Source: Candidatus Thorarchaeota archaeon
GTDB taxonomy: Archaea; Asgardarchaeota; Thorarchaeia; Thorarchaeales; Thorarchaeaceae
Reading direction: 5' to 3'
Assembly (NCBI GenBank): GCA_029855935.1
Contig: JAGSHN010000018.1
Coordinates: forward strand, 1-64,000
Length of the DNA: 64,000 nucleotides
Shown: piece by piece, positions 39,980 to 52,400 of the stretch
Layout of the letters: the number at the start of each line of letters is the position of its first letter
Numbering within the stretch: position 1 is the first letter of the stretch
Position numbers and translations under genes: made by a program
Notes under the pieces: model-generated
Database searches by the model: none
Told to the model about the DNA's origin: nothing
Seen by the model: the letters and a program-made list of their open reading frames with translations, nothing else

Positions 39980-41077
39980 CTACTCGCTGCCAGAGCGGGC
40001 CATCCGCTTTATGCTGTCGACAACCTCGTGCACCATCATGACTGCACCGATGAGTTCCACGCGAGGCTCTTCGGTCTTTGCCTCGGGCCTCGATATCCGG
40101 CCAACCGACCGGCCCATGTTCTCAATGATCGTGGCCAGCGTCTTCTTTGCACTGTCGTCGAGAGAGCTGCCCTCGACCTGAGTGATCAGCTCAGCCAGTT
40201 CGGATATCATGCTCTCGGTGACCTCGGCCGCAGTCTCTGCTCGCCGCGTAAAGCTCTCAATCCGGGCTTGGCACTCGTCCAGCTGTGCCTGAATCTTCTT
40301 CATCCGCTCGGCATCGGCACCGGGCGCGGCGCTCTGGAGCTTTGCCCTCAGTTCCTCGACCTCGGCCTGGAGTCTAGTTATCGTCTGGTCCTTCTTCGCA
40401 ATCGTCTCGAGTAGCTCGGACTCCATATCGGACCCTCCGCCCTCAGAGGGTGGTTGCGCAAGGAGGTCAGCCCGCTCCCTCTCAAGGTCGGAAACCTTCT
40501 GCTTGAGAGCAGTGAGCTCACCCTCGATGGCCGCAAGCTTCTCCTCCTTCTCATTGAGGAGATCCGCAAGCTGCTTTTTCTCACCCTCTAGTCTCTGGAC
40601 CTCACTCTCAAGCACCTTGGCGTTCTCGGAGGCCTCCTTCAGCTGCTGTCTCAGTTTGACAAAGTCGGGATCAGGAGGCGAGATGACGGAGTGGGCCAGA
40701 ACCAGAAATATCACGGCGACACCGGCGAGATAGGCGATACTTGAGAACACGCTTCCAAAGACGACGTTGGTCAGGCCTTGGACCACTGCGACAAAGGCGT
40801 ACCAAGATCCGAAGGTGAGCGTGTCAGGGCCCCACCAGACAGCTCCAAAACCAGCGTACAGTAGGACCAGACATGAGCCTATGACGAGCACAAGACCACT
40901 CAGGACCATCGCGTTACGCACTCGTGACTCTGGGTCGAGATGTCTCTGATAGAGCAAGAGAGTGATGCCGATGAAGATCATCGGTATTACGTAGGGCGCC
41001 ACAGCGATGATATCACTCATAGGAAACTCGAAATCAATCAATGCTTCCAGACCAGGACCGGGATTCAGACCGAGCAC
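39980..41077 (-). CDS. Membrane-anchored coiled-coil protein
   Basis: About 4 N-terminal TM helices followed by a long heptad-repeat region. GTG start follows a GGAGGAG SD. Confidence 0.8.
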   Translation of the reverse strand: MLGLNPGPGLEALIDFEFPMSDIIAVAPYVIPMIFIGITLLLYQRHLDPESRVRNAMVLSGLVLVIGSCLVLLYAGFGAVWWGPDTLTFGSWYAFVAVVQGLTNVVFGSVFSSIAYLAGVAVIFLVLAHSVISPPDPDFVKLRQQLKEASENAKVLESEVQRLEGEKKQLADLLNEKEEKLAAIEGELTALKQKVSDLERERADLLAQPPSEGGGSDMESELLETIAKKDQTITRLQAEVEELRAKLQSAAPGADAERMKKIQAQLDECQARIESFTRRAETAAEVTESMISELAELITQVEGSSLDDSAKKTLATIIENMGRSVGRISRPEAKTEEPRVELIGAVMMVHEVVDSIKRMARSGSE

Positions 41078-41203: not shown

Positions 41204-41494
41204 CTATTCTCGCCACAGACGGGCGGCCTCAAGCTCGTGGTCCTCCACTATGAGCTCGAGCGCCTTGATTAGGCGAGCAGTTTCTGAGATGGACAGGAGA
41301 AAGGCACCCTTGATGTCTCTGTCCTCACCCAGTGTGAGGCGGACCTTTCCCTCGTTTACCCATCCCTCTTCGCTCTTCTCGGGCGGCTGAAACTGGATCT
41401 CAAGCCACGTGCGACGGGTCTGCCCCGTGCTACGGTCTTCGAAGAAGTGCTTGATCTGTAGCCTACGTTCATAGTTAGAAGGTCTTGTTCCCAT
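41204..41494 (-). CDS. Small hypothetical protein (beta-strands + C-terminal helix; possibly PC4/PUR/Whirly-like)
   Basis: 96 aa from ATG 41494 (MGTRPSNYERRLQIKHFFED...LSISETARLIKALE) with coding-like composition. Confidence 0.7.
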   Translation of the reverse strand: MGTRPSNYERRLQIKHFFEDRSTGQTRRTWLEIQFQPPEKSEEGWVNEGKVRLTLGEDRDIKGAFLLSISETARLIKALELIVEDHELEAARLWRE

Positions 41495-41698: not shown

Positions 41699-44605
41699 AT
41701 GATACCAATGACGAGGCCGATCAAGATACAGGCTCTACTTGTGCTTCTGATGATGATCTCACCACTCTTCGCCCCCCTCATTCAGCAGGGGACAGCCCGA
41801 GTCACGCCCTCGACAAGACTCGGTGTTCTCTCGCCCACGTTGGCGGACCGGATAGCGGAGGAACGTGATGACACCCCCATACCAATCATTGTGAGATTCC
41901 CTGACGGGACAGATCCCACCACAATGCTGAGCATCATTGAGACCTATGGCAGAGGTCTCACGGTGAGACATGTCTTTCATCTCGTACCATATGTCTCAGC
42001 CTATGCTCCCGCAAGAGCTATCCACGCACTCGCGTCTTCAGGGCTGGTGACACAGGTCGGCCTCGACAAGAGAGTATCGGCCCTAGAGACTGCGCCAGAG
42101 CCAGTCTTCGAGGCAGAGAGTAACGTCACGTATCTCCACCCGACTGAGGCACTGGACGTGCGCCCGCTCTGGGAGCAAGGGTACAACGGTTCGGGTATCA
42201 CGGTGGCTGTGCTAGATAGCGGCGCCTGGGGAGGCCACCCGGATCTTCAGGGTCGAATCATAGGCTTCAAGGACCTCGTAAATGGCTTGGACGATATGAA
42301 TCCAAGTGATGGTATTGACGCGTACGATGACAATGGCCACGGCACAGCGACTGCTTGGCTCGTTGGAGGCACGGACAACGGTACGGGTATCTACAGCGGA
42401 ATCGCCCCGGGTGCTGACCTTCTCATCATCAAGATACTCGACGAGGATGGTACGACCGATCTATCGACAATGGCACAGGGTATAGAAACCGCTGTCGATC
42501 TCGGTGCTGACATCATCAGTCTCAGTGTCGGAGGCCAGTGGGAGGACACTGGCGAGGATGTGGCAGTCGAGAGCTGTGAGTCTGCGGTGGATGCTGGCGT
42601 CACTGTAGTGGTGGCCGCGGGCAACTCAGGACCTGCGGCCGAGACCATAGCCACACCGGGTGTTGCCACACGGGTCATCACTGTTGGGGCATCAATAGGA
42701 GACGGTGGCGTGATAGCCTTCAGCTCCAGGGGACCGGTCGTACGGACTCAGTCAGCCCCGCTCGGTAGAATCGTCAAGCCAGACATTGTTGCTCCGGGCT
42801 ACGAGGTGTTCTCAGGGAGATGGCCGAATGCCAGCGTTGCAGAGTATCCAGCGTACAACTCCACACAGTATGGCGGGCTCTACACAAGATGGTCAGGAAC
42901 GTCGGCAGCGACGCCGCAGATTGCGGGCGTTGCAGCTCTGCTCAAACAGAAATTCCTCACGTTGAACCCGCTCACCACAAAGGCCGCTATTATGGCGGGG
43001 GCCAACGACTTGCGTCAAGACCCAATGGCGCAGGGTGCTGGGCTTGCCAACGCAACGAGAGCAGCAGAGGTGATTCAAGAGACCTCAAGGATGATCACCA
43101 TCCTAGCCCCGAGGAGATACCCGACACTGCCCGAGGGACGGAATGCGTTCATCGTGGGCGAAGAGCGGGCACCTCTGAACGCAACGGTGATATCGACCGT
43201 GCGATACGAGAACACCGAAGTAGTGGTCAACGGCAACGTGAGCCAGTTCATCACGGTATCGCCGAGCACTTTTCTCACCAGGGTGGGCTACACATTCTTC
43301 ACCATCGGCCTCACAATACCGGACAATCTTCCCCTGTCCGCAGCCGGAAGGTACCTCGGCAATCTCACGCTGGTCACCGACTCGAACGTCATCGCAACAA
43401 TGGAGCTTGATCTTGCCATCACAACCTTTGGAGGGCGTGTGCTCATAGACATGTCGCATCACAGTCTGGACGATCCAGATGACCCATCGTACTACAGCTA
43501 CTTCAAGGACTATCTACGGGCCCGGGGAATTGTCAGTTCTTGGCTTGGCGACCCTCAGAATCCAGTGCTGGCCACTGACAGCACTCTCGGGGACGCGGAC
43601 GCCTTCCTCGTAATGGACACGGAGGTGCCCTACGCCCCTGAGGAGATCGATGCCATCCATCAATTCGTCGAGGATGGAGGGGTCCTCATAGTGCTCTCGG
43701 AATACTATGACAGTGAAACGGGTCAGGCCTCATTTGCAATCGACTCTTACAACGAACTGCTACAGCCGTACGGCATACAGTGCGAACGTTATACAACAGG
43801 CTACGTGCCATTCTCAGACTCAGGAATAGCATACGGCGTCGGCTATGGCGGCGTGGTGGACAACTCGTCGCCGCTGATGGACGACGTTGAGAGACTATAC
43901 ATCCTGATGGGAAGCGCGTTGACTGTTGATGAGAACAACTCAAATGCGCGGGGGCTCTTTTGGACAGACTCTACGAAGAGGCACGCACTCGTCGCGACCG
44001 CCACTGAAGGCAAGGGACAGGTGCTTGTGATAGCGGACGGCTCCACACTCTATGATACAACCATCTATGATGCCATCAGGTCTGGTGCCGATAATCTCAA
44101 GTTCCTTGAGAATGTCGCGTCATGGATTAATCCTGTCAGACCCCGAGTCTATGATGTCATACTTGAGGCAGGAGAGATAGGCGAGACGGCGAACCTGACC
44201 GCGTATATCTTTGATGACGACCTTGAGGACGTGAGGATCACGGTCACGACCCCGCTGGGCGAGCTCGTCAACACCACGATGACTGAAACTCTCGGCTACA
44301 GGTACCACGTGAACTTCACAATGGCAAGCGCAGGATTCTATGATGTGACTATTGTGGCCCGCGACAGCGCTGGCAACGTACGCACGTTCACAAAGACAAT
44401 ACTGGTGCCAGTCGAACCCGTTGATGAGTCGTTCGCTAGAAATGTCATGATTGCTCTTCTTGCCGTTGCAGGACTCGCTCTATGCTATGTCGCGGTGATC
44501 AAGTTCGGAGTGCGAAGACCAAGAGTCAGACGGCGAAGTGAGGACGAGGAGTGGGAGATACCGATAGCTCCCCCCGGGCAGGGGGCTCCACCAGAGATAG
44601 AGTGA
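41699..44605 (+). CDS. Type I membrane S8 serine protease with Site-1-protease (MBTPS1)-like architecture
   Basis: Signal peptide, I9-like propeptide, triad VLDSG / HGTATA / GTSAATP, AAGNSG, a beta domain, a GldG/GIFT-like alpha/beta domain, an Ig-like domain, a TM helix and a basic-then-acidic tail. Confidence 0.9.
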   Translation: [968 protein letters not shown]

Positions 44606-44625: not shown

Positions 44626-45924
44626 TCATTCAATGGGTCCAAGTACGTGCTCCAGATACGAACGCAGCGCAGCGTGCCTGAAGGGCGGGAGTGGGTGCTC
44701 GGACAATGTCGACCCGATCTTCACGCGGTTCAGCAACTGAATTCCCACTCGCGAGGCCATTCGGCTCGAGATCACCTGCCCGCCCACTAGTCGGCCTCCC
44801 GGCGTCGTCAGAAGAGCCACATCAGTGAACTCCGCGCTGTCCCTCAGGAAATGAGCCGAAACTTCGACTCCGAGCGACTTGGCAACGGCTGTGGACTCCC
44901 CGACCGTGACGATCTCGGTTCCGAAGATCCGGTCATACTGGAATCTCAGGAGTACATCATCATAGAGCCTGTCCTTGCCAAGCGCTGCCGAGGCAGCCTG
45001 ACGACCTGCCCGTGCTGCAGTGCTGCCGACAGGCATCAAGAGAGGTCGGCCGGTCAGAAAGTCCCGCATCTCGACACAGTCACCAGCAGCATAGACGTCT
45101 CTGCTCGACGTTCTCATGTACTCGTCGACAACAATACCTCCAAGCGCACCAACCTCAAGACCAAGCGCGCGTGCCAGAGTCGTGCTAGGGCGCACGCCCG
45201 TGGCGAGGACGACGAGGTCGCAATCAATCGTCTCGTTCCCAAGATCTACTGCACGTACCCGACTGTCACCGACCAGTCTCTTCAGCGGACTGTCTTCGTG
45301 TACGGCCACGTCTCCGGGAAGACGTGCCAATAGACGGTCGGTCATCTCCGGCTCCAGTAGCCGACCGAGAACACGAAACGCCTCTACTATGTGAACCTCA
45401 AGTCCCAGGTTTCGGAGCCGTTCCGCTGTCTCAAGTCCGCTGAAACCTGCGCCCACCACTGTGGCGGTTGAGGCCCCCTCGGCGGCCTCCGAGATGCGCA
45501 TTGCGTCTGCAAGGCCCCTCAGAGTGAAGACGCCATTGAGATCAACGCCCGGAACTGGAGGTACTAGAGGCTCACCACCAGTGGCGAGAATCAGCCGGTC
45601 GTAGCTGATAGTCTCCTGCGGGCTGTCTCCGCCATCAACATCGGTAGCGACGAGCGAGTGCGACTGTGTGTCACCACCGATCACGCGCAGTCCCTGGCGC
45701 AGAACTATTCCCCTGTCAGTCAAGGAATCGGGTGACCAATAGTCTATCTCTAGTCCGTGATCGTCACGATGACGGAATGCTCTCGTCACTCCGGGCTTGC
45801 GATATGCAGGGAGCCGATCTGCTGAGACTATTTCAACATCGATGTCTGGTGACAGAGTCTTTGCGGTCACAGCGGCCGATGCTCCGGCGGGGCCGTACCC
45901 AACGATCACAATCTTCATCGTCAT
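44626..45924 (-). CDS. FAD-dependent pyridine nucleotide-disulfide oxidoreductase family protein
   Basis: GYGPAG, YDRLILATG, GAGFSGLE, ATGVRP, TS..DVYAAGDC. Its ATG overlaps the stop of the upstream subtilase (ATGA). Confidence 0.9.
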   Translation of the reverse strand: MTMKIVIVGYGPAGASAAVTAKTLSPDIDVEIVSADRLPAYRKPGVTRAFRHRDDHGLEIDYWSPDSLTDRGIVLRQGLRVIGGDTQSHSLVATDVDGGDSPQETISYDRLILATGGEPLVPPVPGVDLNGVFTLRGLADAMRISEAAEGASTATVVGAGFSGLETAERLRNLGLEVHIVEAFRVLGRLLEPEMTDRLLARLPGDVAVHEDSPLKRLVGDSRVRAVDLGNETIDCDLVVLATGVRPSTTLARALGLEVGALGGIVVDEYMRTSSRDVYAAGDCVEMRDFLTGRPLLMPVGSTAARAGRQAASAALGKDRLYDDVLLRFQYDRIFGTEIVTVGESTAVAKSLGVEVSAHFLRDSAEFTDVALLTTPGGRLVGGQVISSRMASRVGIQLLNRVKIGSTLSEHPLPPFRHAALRSYLEHVLGPIE

Positions 45925-48900
45925 ACCTCTCTGCGCGCAGCTCTCTTGGTCCGCCACAGGACGATTGTAACTGTGACTGCAAACACTGCCCCCGCTGGGA
46001 CTATCACTCTCGAGTAGTCGGACACCAAGTGAAGGACTCCCATAGGCTCTTCGATTGTATCACCGAAGATTGTCACAACGACGGCGTAGGTCTCGTAGTC
46101 GCCGACAGGCATCGAGCCCGTAGACAGTGTCAGTCCGTACACACCGTCTTCTACGGTACGAGAGGCGGAGATATTCCAGACCGCCTCAGATGACAGCCTG
46201 AAAGACACGTACACGTGGTCCACGTAGGCCCAGCCCTCCACAGTGATTGAGGCCGTTATCATCTCATCTATGAGCGGACCGACTGCAACCGTATCTGCGC
46301 CCAGGACCGCAGAAACAATGGCGATATGCGGAGATGTTGCCTGCGACAAGAGCAGCGGCGGCAACGTGAACTGGCTGTGACCGTCAGTGACATCTATCAC
46401 AATCACAGGGTCGAAGCTGTGATTGACTGTAGTGAGGTCAATATCTATCGCCACATTCGCATCACCTGTGCTCCCACCTGAGAGGAGAGGAGTTCCATCC
46501 TCTGTGGATCCAGAGTAGACATGGTACGAGTACGCCATGCCTGTAGACGGAGTGTCAAGGTCCACCGCTGTGAATTGTGTGTGCCAGACCCCGTCATCAC
46601 CCAAGTTGGAGGAGAGTGAACACACCAGCGGCCGCCAAATGTCAGAGATCACGAGCGAGCCCGACGAGTCCGACTCGGGACCGGTTGTGCTCTCCACCGA
46701 TACCTCGAAGGTGAAGGAAGGTGCAAGACTGGTCAGCAGACGTACAAACAACGTGTTGGAACTGTTCCGGACAAAGGCGTTCAATGAGGACGCGACAAAG
46801 CTGCTCCCATCCCATTCGTACACGGACGCACTCCCTCCAGTGACATTGATGAGAAGATCCACGCCATTGTCGCCTGTACTGCTGGAGCTGTCACGGTCCA
46901 CTGCCAACGTTGTGATGGTACCACCCGTGATGTCAGGTGCACCCCTCATAGTGATGGCGAAGTGGGCCTCTTGGAGAGAGGAGAAGACGCGGACGTTGAC
47001 AATGTCGATATCCTCGGGAAGACCGTTGTTCTCGGCTGGACCGTACACAGGGTTGACACCAAGCCAGTCGCTAATGTCAACGTCTGGACCCCACGGGACT
47101 GGCATCACGTGTCGAACTGAGGCAATAGCACTGACAGCACCATAGCCCATATCAGGCCGTGGAGGTTCATCGTAATGACTGCCATCGAGACCACCAGCCC
47201 CCTCGACAATAGCGGAATAGGCCTCCCAGGAGTCGGCTGAGGAGGAGGCCTGAAGAACAAGTGCAAGCAGGCCAGCAACGTGTGGACTTGCCATACTCGT
47301 CCCGCTCTTGATTGTCCAGAGGGAGGTCAGGCTGTTCCTGGCCGCAGTGATGGCAACACCAGGGGCCACAACGATGGGGCGGACCGCTCCATCCACACGA
47401 GGCCCCCGCCCTGAGCTTGATGACACACTGTTGAGCGAGTCGTCCACGGACCCCACCGCGATCCCGAGGTCAGCAGTCCCAGGAGAACTGACAGTGCGCG
47501 AGTTGTCAATGTGATCGAGGAAACGGAGGTTTGTGAGCCCCCAGTTTCCAGGCCAGACATAGCAGTCCATCACAACGTCATCTCCGGACGGGTTCGAGAC
47601 CACGAGCGACCAGTCGCCATTCTGCCACTCTGGCTGCTGGGATGGCAGCTGGACGATGAGGCGATTGGTGCCCCTCACACTCCTGTCGGCAAAGACATAG
47701 GCGTGTATCTCGTCCTCGTCGAGTTCGGAACTCATCCCTACAATCTCGCTGAACGTACCAATCTCAATCTGGCGGCCTGAAGGCGTCCGGAGATAGATCT
47801 GCTCATCACTGTCATCGCTGTACCACAGCGCGTTGAAGAATGAGTACTCGTCGGGGTTGTTGACTGCGAACGAAACACTCGCCGTTTCGCCAGCGTTGAC
47901 AGCCAGCCGCGCATGTTTCTGCGTGCCTGCGAGATTCCCAGTGGCCACAGTTGTGAGTACGCCATACTTTCGCAGCGCCTCGCTCACAGCCGCATCCTCT
48001 ATGTCGGTGCCATCAAGAAAACCTAGGAAACTCGAGAAAGACATGTTGATGACGTCAGCGCCATTCTCAATGGCGAAGTATACGGCCTCGATTATGTCCG
48101 CACTCATCAGAGGACTGCGAATCACCATGAGATCGGCGCCCGGTGCGACACCAATCATCGAAGTGTACCCAGGCTGACCTGCAGCGACAATGGATGCCAC
48201 GTGAGTGCCATGCCCATTGCTGTCCCCGACAAAGAGGGCATCGGTTGTCAGATTGACCCCTCTGACGTACACGTTGTCAGCGAACTGATCGAAGAGTATG
48301 GACACCTTCGGCTCGCCAAGAAGCATCACATCCTCGTCAGGTAGGGAGATTACACCATTGTGGTCATGGTCAACGCCGACAAGCCAGCGATCACCCTCAG
48401 CATAGTCGAACCGGCTGTTGCCCCGTGTGTCGATGTACAGGTACTCGTTCTCGGTCTCGATGACCCCGTTATGTGCGACCTCGACGACCTGTATCGGCCC
48501 CTCGTCGTCATCGGCGATGGAGTCGTTGTCGAGGTCAGCATAGAACTCAGAACCCTGTTGAAGAACGTTGATGGGTCCCTGGGTAACCCTCCAGAACGAG
48601 GGATGCAGCCACTGCACACCAGTGTCGAGTACGGCGACCGTGACCCCGGAGCCATCAACGGACTCGCCATCCACCGAGAGAGAGTTGTGAACGTCAATTG
48701 CACCAATTGCCGGGACAGACGACTCCAATGAGGGGACGAACCGGCGATCCCCAGAGTAGGCCCCAGTCAGGCCCATCTGGCCAAGACCGGTGAGAGAGGA
48801 CTTGCTCGTGACGCGCACCACGTATATTGACCCAACGTGAACTACATTGCCGTTCCTCATCTCGGGTCTGATGCCAAGACTCCGCATTGCAGAGAGCTCA

Positions 48901-49163
48901 GATGCTGATAGCTCGTGCGAGAATCTCAACAGTGCACGTACACCCTGATCCCCGGTGGTTGCGGGCGAGCTCTGTAGCCTGTTGAGTTCCGCTGCCAGAG
49001 TGGAATCGACAATTGGCGAAACAGAGAGGGCAGGAGCAACGGACATCGGCGACCTGGGCACCTGTGTTGAGATCGCCCCTGCAGAGAATGGTGAGAGGGT
49101 ACAGAGTAGGACTGAGAATACCAGAAGAACCCTTGCAGACGACACGCGTAGCTTCACCGCCAT
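45921..49163 (-). CDS. Secreted, C-terminally anchored S8 serine protease with internal insertions
   Basis: Signal peptide; triad VLDTG / HGTHVAS / GTSMASPHVAG; DxDxD-type acidic loops between Asp and His; C-terminal TM + basic tail. Confidence 0.92.
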   Translation of the reverse strand: MAVKLRVSSARVLLVFSVLLCTLSPFSAGAISTQVPRSPMSVAPALSVSPIVDSTLAAELNRLQSSPATTGDQGVRALLRFSHELSASELSAMRSLGIRPEMRNGNVVHVGSIYVVRVTSKSSLTGLGQMGLTGAYSGDRRFVPSLESSVPAIGAIDVHNSLSVDGESVDGSGVTVAVLDTGVQWLHPSFWRVTQGPINVLQQGSEFYADLDNDSIADDDEGPIQVVEVAHNGVIETENEYLYIDTRGNSRFDYAEGDRWLVGVDHDHNGVISLPDEDVMLLGEPKVSILFDQFADNVYVRGVNLTTDALFVGDSNGHGTHVASIVAAGQPGYTSMIGVAPGADLMVIRSPLMSADIIEAVYFAIENGADVINMSFSSFLGFLDGTDIEDAAVSEALRKYGVLTTVATGNLAGTQKHARLAVNAGETASVSFAVNNPDEYSFFNALWYSDDSDEQIYLRTPSGRQIEIGTFSEIVGMSSELDEDEIHAYVFADRSVRGTNRLIVQLPSQQPEWQNGDWSLVVSNPSGDDVVMDCYVWPGNWGLTNLRFLDHIDNSRTVSSPGTADLGIAVGSVDDSLNSVSSSSGRGPRVDGAVRPIVVAPGVAITAARNSLTSLWTIKSGTSMASPHVAGLLALVLQASSSADSWEAYSAIVEGAGGLDGSHYDEPPRPDMGYGAVSAIASVRHVMPVPWGPDVDISDWLGVNPVYGPAENNGLPEDIDIVNVRVFSSLQEAHFAITMRGAPDITGGTITTLAVDRDSSSSTGDNGVDLLINVTGGSASVYEWDGSSFVASSLNAFVRNSSNTLFVRLLTSLAPSFTFEVSVESTTGPESDSSGSLVISDIWRPLVCSLSSNLGDDGVWHTQFTAVDLDTPSTGMAYSYHVYSGSTEDGTPLLSGGSTGDANVAIDIDLTTVNHSFDPVIVIDVTDGHSQFTLPPLLLSQATSPHIAIVSAVLGADTVAVGPLIDEMITASITVEGWAYVDHVYVSFRLSSEAVWNISASRTVEDGVYGLTLSTGSMPVGDYETYAVVVTIFGDTIEEPMGVLHLVSDYSRVIVPAGAVFAVTVTIVLWRTKRAARREV

Positions 49164-49459: not shown

Positions 49460-52400
49460 ATGAGAGCGAGCCGCATACTTCTCATCATGAGCCTGCTTCT
49501 GATGTCATCGCTGTTCGTTGTCAGTTTCTCGATGATGACGAGCACAACCAGCATCAGAGCAGAAGATGACAATTCTGATTCAGGTCTTGAAACTATATCG
49601 TTTCTTGAGCCAGTCAACAAGTTCGGGACGGCCACCTCGGTCTGGGACTACGTTGATGAACACTACAAGTCCAACTTGGGAAAAGTCACCGACTTCATCT
49701 ATATGACGCAGAATAACGACGACGCCGCAACGCTATCCGAGGCGGCATCGAGCTACGCCCTCTTGGAGTACCGCAGAACATGGAGTCCGTGGCTACCTGG
49801 CGGGTGGAGCTCGACCGGGGACTTCAAGCTCGTGAACACAGGGGGAGTCGACGGTGACGACTATGCAGGGTGTGGATTCGAGGAGCAGCATACAGCACAT
49901 GGAACACTCACCAGCCCCACCTACAACATGGCCGGAGTGGAGTCCTTCAAGTTCTCCGTATATCTGAAGGACTATAGACACGCCGGATCCTCCGCTGACC
50001 TGAAGGTCTACTTCAAGGACAGCTCGGGGAACTGGGACTACAAGTTCGACTTGGAGAACTGCGGCGAAGCGGATGCCAATGGATGGAGATACAAGGCAAT
50101 GACAGTCACTGACTCTCAGTACCTCCATGGCTCATTTCAAGTGAAATACGAGGCAACTCAGGTTGGCCAGTTCGAGATGGTAGGTGTGGACAACCACCGC
50201 ATCGAGAAGGGAGCCAATCACGGTCTGGACCAAGAGTTCCGCTTCACGAACGTTGACTACAACAGGTTTGCGGACGAGCGCCTGACAATCTATTCTTCCC
50301 CTCTAGGGGGCGAGAACATGATAGCCCAGTGCTGGACGGGATCATCGTGGCATACTCTCGGATCTATCAGCTCGAGCCCTCAGACCTTCAATGTTCACGA
50401 CTACCTCAACTCCGACACGTTCCGTGTGCGACTGATTGATGAAACGAGAGGCGGTGACTGGACAAGGAACAAATGGTACATCTCAAGGATGTACCTCTAT
50501 CTCTCAAATGCCATACCCACGCATCCGTACACACCAACGTCCGACTCACTGTATGACGGAGGGGTGTTCTATGCCCGACAGTCACCGCACAGCTCGAACT
50601 ATGCATATATCACTACCAAGCACGTCGATGATGACGGATACGGCGACATTGACTACTGCTACATCATCGGGCGCGTCAGCGGAACAGTGAGATGGAAAGC
50701 ACGGTACACCCCGGCTGGGAACCAGTGGACGATAATCAGCGGTTCCTCGTATATTGATCTCGGCCCCGGGAGTGTGATCAAGAGTGGCACAACCATCACC
50801 ATAACGTGGCACATCAGGTTCGACTGGAACCATCCGGACACCAATGACCTAGACATAGGACTAGAGACCGATGACGGCGTGTCCGATGTCACAACATACT
50901 TCCCAACAAACTGGGACGTAGAAACCGGCTTGGAGCTGATATATCACGGTGTGACAGATTCACGCGTCGACGTGGGAGGCTCTCTCTCTGTCACAGGCGA
51001 TATCAGATACTATGGATCGGCCTCTAACATAGCACCCGACCCATCAGAGGTAGAGGTCTATGTGACAAGAAGCCTGACCTCGTCAGCCAGCTGGACTGGA
51101 ACTCCGAACGGCGATGGAACCTTCTCAGTGCCAGTGTCTGTCGATACCTACGTCAGCAACAACAGATTCTCATACCAAGTGAGAGACACGGTGCATCACG
51201 TGAACCGGCTGACTGACCCATACAGCGATGATGTGATAGGAGATAGAGTCAAGGTAACTGACATGCACTGCGATGATCCGCAGAATAGGACCGACGTGGG
51301 TGCCTCTGTGACCATCTATGCCACTCTCGTCTACGAATACGATGACACACCCGTGACGACAGGCACTGTGACGATAAACGGCATCACTGCAACCCACGAG
51401 GGGAGTGGTACGTGGTCCATCACACATTCTGAGAGCTCGGTGACATCGATCACGTTTGACACCGTGGCAATATCGGGAGACACGTACGGCCTCTCTGTTG
51501 TGAACCAGAACTCTCAGAGCGTCGAGGTGATATGGGACCAGATCATCGTGGGCGGATATTCTGTCGAGGACTCGTGGGTGAACATCGGCGCGACAGTTGA
51601 TGTCCACGTCACACTCACCTACGCCTACGATGGGGCCAACGTCACCGACGGTACCGTGACCCTCAACGGCTATTCTGCATCACACGTCAGCGGCAGCGCT
51701 TGGGTGGCCCCGGTCTCTCAGTCCGACGTGACAAGAATCATCTTCAACGACGTAGCGTGCAGTGGAAACCAGTACGGAATAACAGTGGTGGACCAGAATG
51801 GCCAACAACAGCCGGTGACCTGGGACAAGGTGACTGTACGCTCCTATTCGGTGACCGACGCGCGAGTCAACATAGGAGACTCCGTGACTATTCAGGTCGA
51901 GATAGAATACGAGTACGATGACACGGACGTTGTGGATGGCAGTGTCACAATCAACGGGATCTCGGCCACATACACTGGCAGCAATGGCGTATGGGAGATC
52001 ACTGTGACCCAGAGCACGGTACAGCAGGTGACCTACGACACTGTGGCGTGCGTGGGTAACGCCCACGGAATATCAGCCGTCGATCAGAACGGCCAATCGA
52101 CATCTGTCATCTGGGATGCGCTGGTGATCCACATAACAGACCCCACAGATCAGCGGATTGACATCGGGGCGAATGCCAGCGGCATCGCGGTGTCAGCAAC
52201 GTACGCTTACGACGGCGGTGCATATGACGGTTCACTGACGCTCAATGACACAACCTTCCAATTTGCGACGGTGGGAAGACGCGGGTACACTGTGTCCAGT
52301 GCAGCAGGCGACGACACCTATGGAATCTCTGTGATTCTCACCAATGACGAGACCTACTGCATCTGGGATGCACTTATCGTCCACTTGTCAGGCCCATCCG

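Follow-up and report, generated by a model that had tools for sequence, protein, structure and literature searches.

The 64,000-nucleotide window analysed here, positions 1 to 64,000 of contig JAGSHN010000018.1 from a Candidatus Thorarchaeota archaeon, contains an intact gene for a 968-residue protein of the subtilisin (S8) protease family. Its parts follow one another in the order seen in eukaryotic site-1 protease (S1P, also named MBTPS1 or SKI-1), an enzyme that governs lipid, endoplasmic reticulum-stress and lysosomal signalling in eukaryotes and for whose evolutionary origin we know of no account. Our literature searches found nothing joining 'site-1 protease' with 'Asgard', and nothing relevant on GIFT domains or Asgard subtilisins.

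Layout of the Thorarchaeota protease

A reading of the DNA from sequence only had proposed a signal peptide, propeptide, S8 domain, beta domain, alpha/beta domain, Ig-like domain, transmembrane (TM) helix and tail, and this layout is borne out by hidden Markov models (HMMs), structural models and alignments (Table 1). The domain borders were drawn from local HMMs and two AlphaFold models, that of the post-catalytic part (residues 462-910) having a predicted local distance difference test score (pLDDT) of 93.9. The alpha/beta domain, which the sequence-only reading had placed at 43433-44134, coincides with a GIFT (GATase-like) domain. The protein carries 14 N-x-S/T sequons and is probably N-glycosylated.

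Table 1. The protease gene and its parts, neighbouring genes, and paralogues on other contigs (C) of the same genome (G000). Positions are those of the window unless a contig is named.
Feature	Position	Strand	Basis or remark
Protease gene, intact open reading frame, 968 aa	41699-44605	+	Candidatus Thorarchaeota window
Signal peptide (about aa 1-33)	41699..41797	+	Predicted from sequence: hydrophobic N-terminus, helix at residues 6-28 in model
Propeptide, Tk-SP N-pro type (aa 34-150)	41798..42148	+	phmmer alignment with ProN-Tk-SP propeptide from residue 34 on
S8 catalytic domain (aa 151-461)	42149..43081	+	Pfam S8 match; invariant D173/H214/N309/S402
Beta-sandwich (aa 465-576)	43091..43426	+	Model pLDDT >90; position of S1P P-like domain and Tk-SP beta-jelly-roll
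GIFT (GATase-like) domain (aa 577-812)	43427..44134	+	VIA structure matches
Ig-like (PKD/filamin-like) stalk (aa 814-905)	44138..44413	+	Weak Pfam PKD and Filamin matches; all-beta model
Single TM helix (about aa 912-937)	44432..44509	+	Hydrophobic stretch; helix 910-936 in model
Cytoplasmic tail (30 residues) and stop codon	44510..44605	+	Alignment of 22 Thorarchaeota homologues
S8-bearing protein, 1607 aa	34681-39504	-	S8 interrupted by long insertions
4-TM protein with long coiled coil	39980-41077	-	No known family
96-aa cytoplasmic protein (MGTRPSNYERRLQIKHFF...)	41204-41494	-	Upstream of the protease, divergent transcription; no known family
S8 protease, 1080 aa (1055-1080 across the loci read)	45921-49163	-	S8 interrupted by long insertions
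S8-GIFT paralogue, about 660 aa	G000:C10:19506-21509	+	Same genome
S8-GIFT paralogue P0311, 657 aa	G000:C19:44634-46607	-	Same genome
S8-GIFT paralogue	G000:C28:48854-53323	+	Same genome

The catalytic domain is of the subtilisin family, with the S8 fold, the Asp-His-Ser triad and an oxyanion Asn all present. The Pfam Peptidase_S8 model matches residues 164-441 (E 2e-53, 182 bits where the cut-off is 21.8), and D173, H214, N309 (the oxyanion Asn) and S402 are unchanged across 22 homologues. Judged from these intact residues, the protease is apparently active. Its closest solved relative over the propeptide, S8 domain and first beta part is Tk-SP of Thermococcus kodakarensis (PDB 3AFG, 9UES), which aligns over residues 34-457 in phmmer (3afg, E 7e-54) and over model residues 41-529 in the structural comparison (VIA; Z 26.3, 381 residues). 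In the models, propeptide and S8 domain are closest to Tk-SP, at 33% structural identity as against 22% for S1P. Within residues 1-165 the sole Pfam match is a weak one to Tk-SP_N-pro (E 0.016), and MBTP1_N, the model of the S1P-type prodomain, finds no match there. Tk-SP stops after its beta-jelly-roll, whereas the Thorarchaeota protein goes on to a GIFT domain, stalk, TM helix and tail. A long FSSRG...KPDIV loop was considered as a link to S1P and set aside: S1P gained no preference when this region was compared with the PDB, and the loop is a trait of Thorarchaeota rather than family-wide.

The beta-sandwich aligns with S1P residues 478-616, in VIA and in HMMER, and also with Tk-SP and Vpr. 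The domain that follows belongs to the GIFT superfamily, having the GATase-like alpha/beta fold and GIFT motifs and, judged from conserved columns only, no Cys-His-Glu triad. It is closest to IFT52, both in structure (Z 22.1, root-mean-square deviation 2.7 A over 204 residues, ahead of OST48 at Z 18.8, S1P at 18.3 and STM3548 at 16.1) and in profile comparison (E 6.8e-14 as against 1e-8 for S1P). The fold is common to the protease, IFT52 and OST48/Wbp1 (PDB 5FMS, 5FMR, 6S7O), and it ties the Asgard S8-GIFT proteins to two further hallmark eukaryotic proteins. Neither of these has a protease domain, and IFT52 is cytoplasmic. OST48 aligns over both GIFT and the next beta domain (residues 118-445 of the 462-910 model; VIA Z 18.8, 296 residues; Foldseek 2.7e-13), and it too has a TM helix and short tail at its end. 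The succession of GIFT, beta domain (43427-44413 for the two), TM helix and short tail mirrors OST48/Wbp1 of the eukaryotic oligosaccharyltransferase. With Pfam, the models GldG, DUF4350, IFT52_GIFT and MBTPS1_4th all stay below threshold on the GIFT domain, and the first three types match more family members than MBTPS1_4th does: GldG, IFT52_GIFT and DUF4350. The most frequent Pfam matches are to the bacterial GldG/DUF4350/ABC_transp_aux proteins, which share L-D-x-x-H and GG motifs with it but are unfused to S8 and often contain several GIFT copies.

For the Ig-like stalk beyond GIFT there are also filamin repeats among the matches of the A3 profile. The position of the TM helix is kept across the 22 homologues, as are the motifs of the tail at about 50% overall identity. 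The tail reads RRPRVRRR...EWE...PPEIE, in which a basic cluster precedes an EWE motif and a C-terminal PPxIE; E951, W952, E953 and P964 are nearly invariant, and P965 and I967 are invariant. This conservation (44510-44602) suggests a cytoplasmic binding partner. Odin-type relatives have a zinc ribbon at the C-terminus in place of the EWE...PPxIE tail.

Kinship with site-1 protease

In human S1P, an S8 domain (187-478), a P-like beta-sandwich (479-616) and a GIFT domain (617-998) precede a TM helix and tail (PMC11231238). Set beside the S1P structures (PDB 8UW8, 8UWC, 9CSD), the Thorarchaeota protease has the same order of parts from signal peptide through short basic tail, and its models and HMM matches recover the S1P domain succession of S8, P-like, GIFT, TM and basic tail. 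Motifs are common to both at the start and in the core of GIFT. The sequence-only reading had quoted strings of human S1P, and every one of them, including RVLWDQYH, GRIVLYGDS and ALNELL, is present in computed alignments to 8uw8 and 8uwc. It had also suggested a Foldseek comparison, in which S1P proved to be the top PDB match, both with the whole model (2e-30 over about 750 columns) and with the residues 462-910 model alone (5.7e-14, with OST48 at 2.7e-13 and IFT52 at 1e-10).

In VIA, no chain but S1P aligns across S8, beta-sandwich and GIFT, with residues 160-813 of the protease matched to S1P 204-873 (568 residues, Z 25.9, 22% identity). Tk-SP is level with it on Z but covers 381 residues to its 568. 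Profile comparison gives a collinear alignment over the same three domains: a pan-archaeal profile of 47 archaeal proteins, running from the latter half of S8 through to GIFT, matches human S1P as one continuous HMMER domain (1-367 to 345-771, 127 bits, E 7.6e-36). Post-catalytic profiles compared with an alignment of true S1Ps in hhalign reach probabilities of 96.8% (Thorarchaeota only) and 98.9% (pan-archaeal), and among language-model neighbours nine MBTPS1 clusters, at 0.93, come straight after the protein's own cluster. The likeness to S1P is far above chance.

The two proteins also differ. The propeptide is Tk-SP-like instead of MBTP1_N-like, the Ig-like stalk is extra, the GIFT domain has about 235 residues whereas that of S1P spans positions 617-998, and the trees do not recover the protease as sister to S1P. 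Neither a SPRING partner nor RxxL specificity is indicated for it. The S1P-specific Pfam models stay below threshold on it. MBTPS1_3rd (cut-off 27 bits) has no match on the protease or on any of 46 family members, and genome-wide it finds only an unrelated match (E 0.59), where true S1Ps score 119-201 bits. MBTPS1_4th reaches 15-20.6 bits, over model positions 75-116 only and under its 27-bit cut-off, where true S1Ps score 231-457. A word-indexed homologue search with the post-catalytic region returned only Thorarchaeota relatives (at least 46% identity) and did not reach S1P. A Heimdall homologue (P0166), tried as a nearer relative of S1P, is no closer to it than the window protease (P0001).

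An Asgard-wide family with the ectodomain plan of S1P, grouped with S1P in first trees, makes an archaeal origin of this secretory-pathway protease testable. A rival reading is convergence, in which a protease of the pyrolysin/Tk-SP type, with S8 followed by a beta domain, gained GIFT independently in archaea and in the S1P lineage. Many proteases, such as Tk-SP, Vpr and C5a peptidase, have a beta domain after S8, and GIFT is a common, mobile module: an exhaustive profile search found 1015 relatives, many of them multi-copy and without a protease. GIFT with a beta domain occurs in bacterial GH88 proteins too, GIFT profiles without S8 come close to S8-linked ones in matching S1P, the S8-linked GIFT domains do not form one clade, and the S8 domain of the window protease groups with subtilisins that have no GIFT. 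However, one continuous alignment spans both domain junctions, and S8 and GIFT trees separately put S1P among archaeal S8-GIFT proteins. MBTPS1_4th matches are, moreover, enriched among S8-linked GIFT domains (31 of 43, versus 30 of 97 others; Fisher p 7e-6, a value overstated because the rows are related to one another). We regard independent gain as unlikely, and consider eukaryotic S1P and the archaeal S8-beta-GIFT proteases to be, most likely, members of one superfamily.

Site-1 protease in the trees

S1P reference sequences were gathered from metagenome contigs by DNA encoding the motif TGGAN[IV]PALN. The scan returned 120 loci, about 40 of them with long intron-free open reading frames, and all nine of the frames that were scanned with Pfam are true S1P (S8, MBTPS1_3rd and MBTPS1_4th, the last with E down to 4e-137; MBTP1_N in four). 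Because the motif is common to all and the S8 domains are 58-83% identical, the set is a narrow sample of eukaryotes. Many intron-free full-length S1P genes, usable as references, are present in these JGI/ENA metagenome contigs (L017-L136), for example at L077:177-3242 and L090:5039-8761.

In a quick S8 tree (114 rows, LG+G4), S1P falls inside a clade of 50 S8-GIFT proteins plus one other (support 90) and is sister to a trio of 826-residue Asgard proteins (L230-232; support 97). With 68 rows and LG+C20 under posterior mean site frequencies (PMSF), 19 S8-GIFT proteins, which we call clade A, split from all else together with S1P. This 27-row split has a Shimodaira-Hasegawa-like approximate likelihood ratio test (SH-aLRT) support of 96 in the quick search, and an ultrafast bootstrap (UFBoot) of 75 with SH-aLRT 90 in the careful one; the placement of S1P within the group, including its sisterhood with L231, is not settled there. 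The clade of the window protease (clade B) groups instead with ordinary archaeal subtilisins (98/96, careful LG+C20 search). On sisterhood with S1P, which the sequence-only reading had put forward for an S8 phylogeny, the S8 trees place S1P among archaeal S8-GIFT proteins with moderate support and the window protease on another branch. Supports from quick trees are treated as rough because a constrained search beat the quick LG+G4 tree by 27 log-likelihood (lnL) units.

The GIFT tree (174 rows, quick) gives a similar picture. S1P sits in a 71-row cluster (SH-aLRT 94). Of the 63 rows there that are not S1P, 58 are S8-linked, and the GIFT clade of the window protease falls outside the cluster. 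In a careful tree of S8, beta-sandwich and GIFT together (644 columns), neither clade A (100/98) nor clade B (100/100) includes S1P, and both are monophyletic; clade B clusters with 1250-residue Asgard forms (98/92), again with S1P outside. S1P has a stem of 1.97 and pairs with P0182, a long Bathyarchaeia branch, close to the tree's centre (96/89), which looks like long-branch attraction. With P0182 as query, a contig scan found one Bathyarchaeia locus.

These trees bear on whether S1P has its orthologue or direct Asgard ancestor in the subfamily of the window protease itself, which would make the first cut of a two-step S1P/S2P-type proteolysis of membrane-tethered regulators. The full S1P topology, from signal peptide to basic tail, is what such an ancestor would show, and in an approximately unbiased (AU) test on S8 alone a clade of S1P with clade B is not rejected (lnL difference -14.0, p 0.237). 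Set against this are the grouping of its S8 clade with ordinary archaeal subtilisins, its GIFT clade outside the S1P-bearing cluster, the full-length cluster that excludes S1P, and the Tk-SP-like propeptide. We consider direct ancestry very improbable, and the protease is not the best candidate for the archaeal branch nearest to S1P. In other words, since S1P apparently lies in the same superfamily, the protease is a cousin and not a demonstrated ancestor.

A better candidate could be clade A, in which case the closest relatives of S1P would belong to another S8-GIFT subfamily and the window protease would be a more distant paralogue. Examples of clade A are the C10 and C19 paralogues of the same genome (Table 1), a Heimdallarchaeum protein in L233 and the 826-residue protein at L231:1603-4083. 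The sisterhood of S1P with the L230-232 trio and the 27-row split both point this way, as does the serine motif of the C19 paralogue, GTSFASPRVAG, which resembles GTSVASPVVAG of S1P. The L231 protein (minus strand, Asgard genome G130) has a signal peptide, propeptide, S8, beta domain, GIFT and TM helix and ends in a short basic tail, SKRRFAS; it shows the S1P plan without the Ig stalk. However, the full-length tree keeps clade A monophyletic without S1P, which goes with P0182; the sister group depends on the model, long-branch attraction is likely, and the quick searches converged poorly. On balance we think this placement possible but rather doubtful.

The sequence-only reading had seen in the protease an Asgard precursor of S1P. 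What survives of this is the collinear layout, the profile-level homology and the position of S1P among archaeal S8-GIFT proteins; that the protease itself is this precursor is not supported. We hypothesize, tentatively and at somewhat less than even confidence, that S1P arose from a membrane-anchored S8-beta-GIFT protease of Asgard archaea, a stock of which the window protease would be one surviving branch. If this is true, the ectodomain plan of protease, P-like domain, GIFT and TM helix predates eukaryotes, and S1P is a new Asgard-derived eukaryotic signature protein.

Several points weigh against so close a reading of the resemblance, and the architecture makes the link to S1P look stronger than it is. 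The whole-protein model has a pLDDT of 73 overall, with an S8 part of moderate confidence, and its domains superpose on S1P at a root-mean-square deviation of 8.7 A. The S1P S8 profile prefers a canonical 605-residue subtilisin of the same genome (121.7 bits) to the protease, which comes second at 101.4, and the S1P post-catalytic profile has the protease as its best match in the genome, yet at E 0.0045. In hhalign comparisons with S1P GIFT, non-S8 GIFT domains (132) come nearly equal to S8-linked ones (149), and the beta-plus-GIFT module is found also in bacterial GH88/DUF4350 proteins. The trees were built without bacterial or other eukaryotic S8 proteins; in them the S1P branch is very long, and the sister of S1P shifts with data set and model. 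Export, autoprocessing and glycosylation, like the role of GIFT and the substrates, are things we infer. Generic Pfam matches on GIFT and an S8 domain that branches with ordinary archaeal subtilisins were outcomes that the sequence-only reading had itself counted as adverse, and both were found in part.

Relatives, neighbourhood and likely role

The window protease represents a Thorarchaeota-type subfamily (about 965 residues) of a large, mainly Asgard S8-beta-GIFT superfamily. Among the best 150 representatives of the GIFT relatives, S8 lies upstream of GIFT in about 45; named carriers belong to Thor-, Odin-, Loki-, Hel-, Heimdall-, Hod-, Baldr- and Ranarchaeia and 'Asgardarchaeia', with a few from Bathyarchaeia. 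In a scan of Asgard and Thermoproteota genomes, as distinct from bacteria, matches at E<=1e-50 occur in about two thirds of 151 Asgard genomes (a hand count), most covering S8 through GIFT, with full-length matches in most Asgard families. The same profile and cut-off give 3 of 251 Thermoproteota genomes, a comparison that favours Asgard because most sequences behind the profile are from Asgard. Asgard genomes commonly encode this architecture, and Thermoproteota rarely do.

We propose that the protein is a membrane-anchored, type-I extracellular serine protease of the subtilisin family, a cousin of S1P, that probably serves in proteolysis at the cell surface. The signal peptide would export it, and the Tk-SP-type N-terminal propeptide would aid folding and then be removed by autoprocessing. 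The beta-sandwich and the non-catalytic GIFT domain may buttress the active S8 domain; as in S1P, GIFT probably packs on the protease and would stabilise it or gate substrate access. The Ig-like stalk, the one TM helix and the short conserved tail would anchor the protein at the surface, where it likely works in nutrition or in the maturation or shedding of surface proteins. Surface proteolysis seems to us the most economical reading, and we picture this cousin of S1P as most likely the surface protease of a protein-degrading archaeon.

A role in regulated intramembrane signalling is not indicated. The sequence-only reading had inferred a possible S1P/S2P-type system and proposed a search for M50 proteases and TM-tethered transcription factors. 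M50 proteases are indeed present in the genome, as direct ancestry of S1P with a two-step proteolysis would have it, but they are also present in 14 of 14 control genomes, so that their presence says nothing on such signalling. No tethered transcription factors are indicated in the gene cluster, as read in the window and two homologous loci (L011, L013). The neighbours are other large proteases, an oxidoreductase and a coiled-coil protein, and the signalling proposal is not upheld.

The cluster is conserved across Thorarchaeota, and the order in these loci is the gene of about 1600 residues, the 4-TM coiled-coil protein, the 96-residue protein, the protease itself, a flavoprotein oxidoreductase and the S8 protease of 1055-1080 residues. 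The 96-residue and 4-TM proteins keep their positions in Thorarchaeota relatives at about 50% identity, and the 1080-residue S8 protease stays beside the flavoprotein oxidoreductase in other Thorarchaeota. The counterpart of the 1607-residue gene in L013 has 1596 residues and no Pfam match on record; the gene is not present in L011. TldD/PmbA peptidase genes lie beyond the second S8 protease in the two homologous loci only.

Among the paralogues of the same genome, the C19 protein has a signal anchor and an intact triad, without a propeptide or C-terminal TM helix. Its subfamily occurs in all 26 searched genomes of the window's Thorarchaeota family, usually as two copies, and has more distant members in other Asgard families. 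About 1.3 kb upstream of the C10 paralogue, and on its strand, is a gene for an ABC-2 permease. The gene at L190:11750-13786 (plus strand; G000:C19 about 49749-51785), three genes away from the C19 paralogue, encodes a 678-residue protein that matches Pfam E3_UFM1_ligase at E 6e-12 and may be a eukaryote-like homologue of UFM1 ligase.

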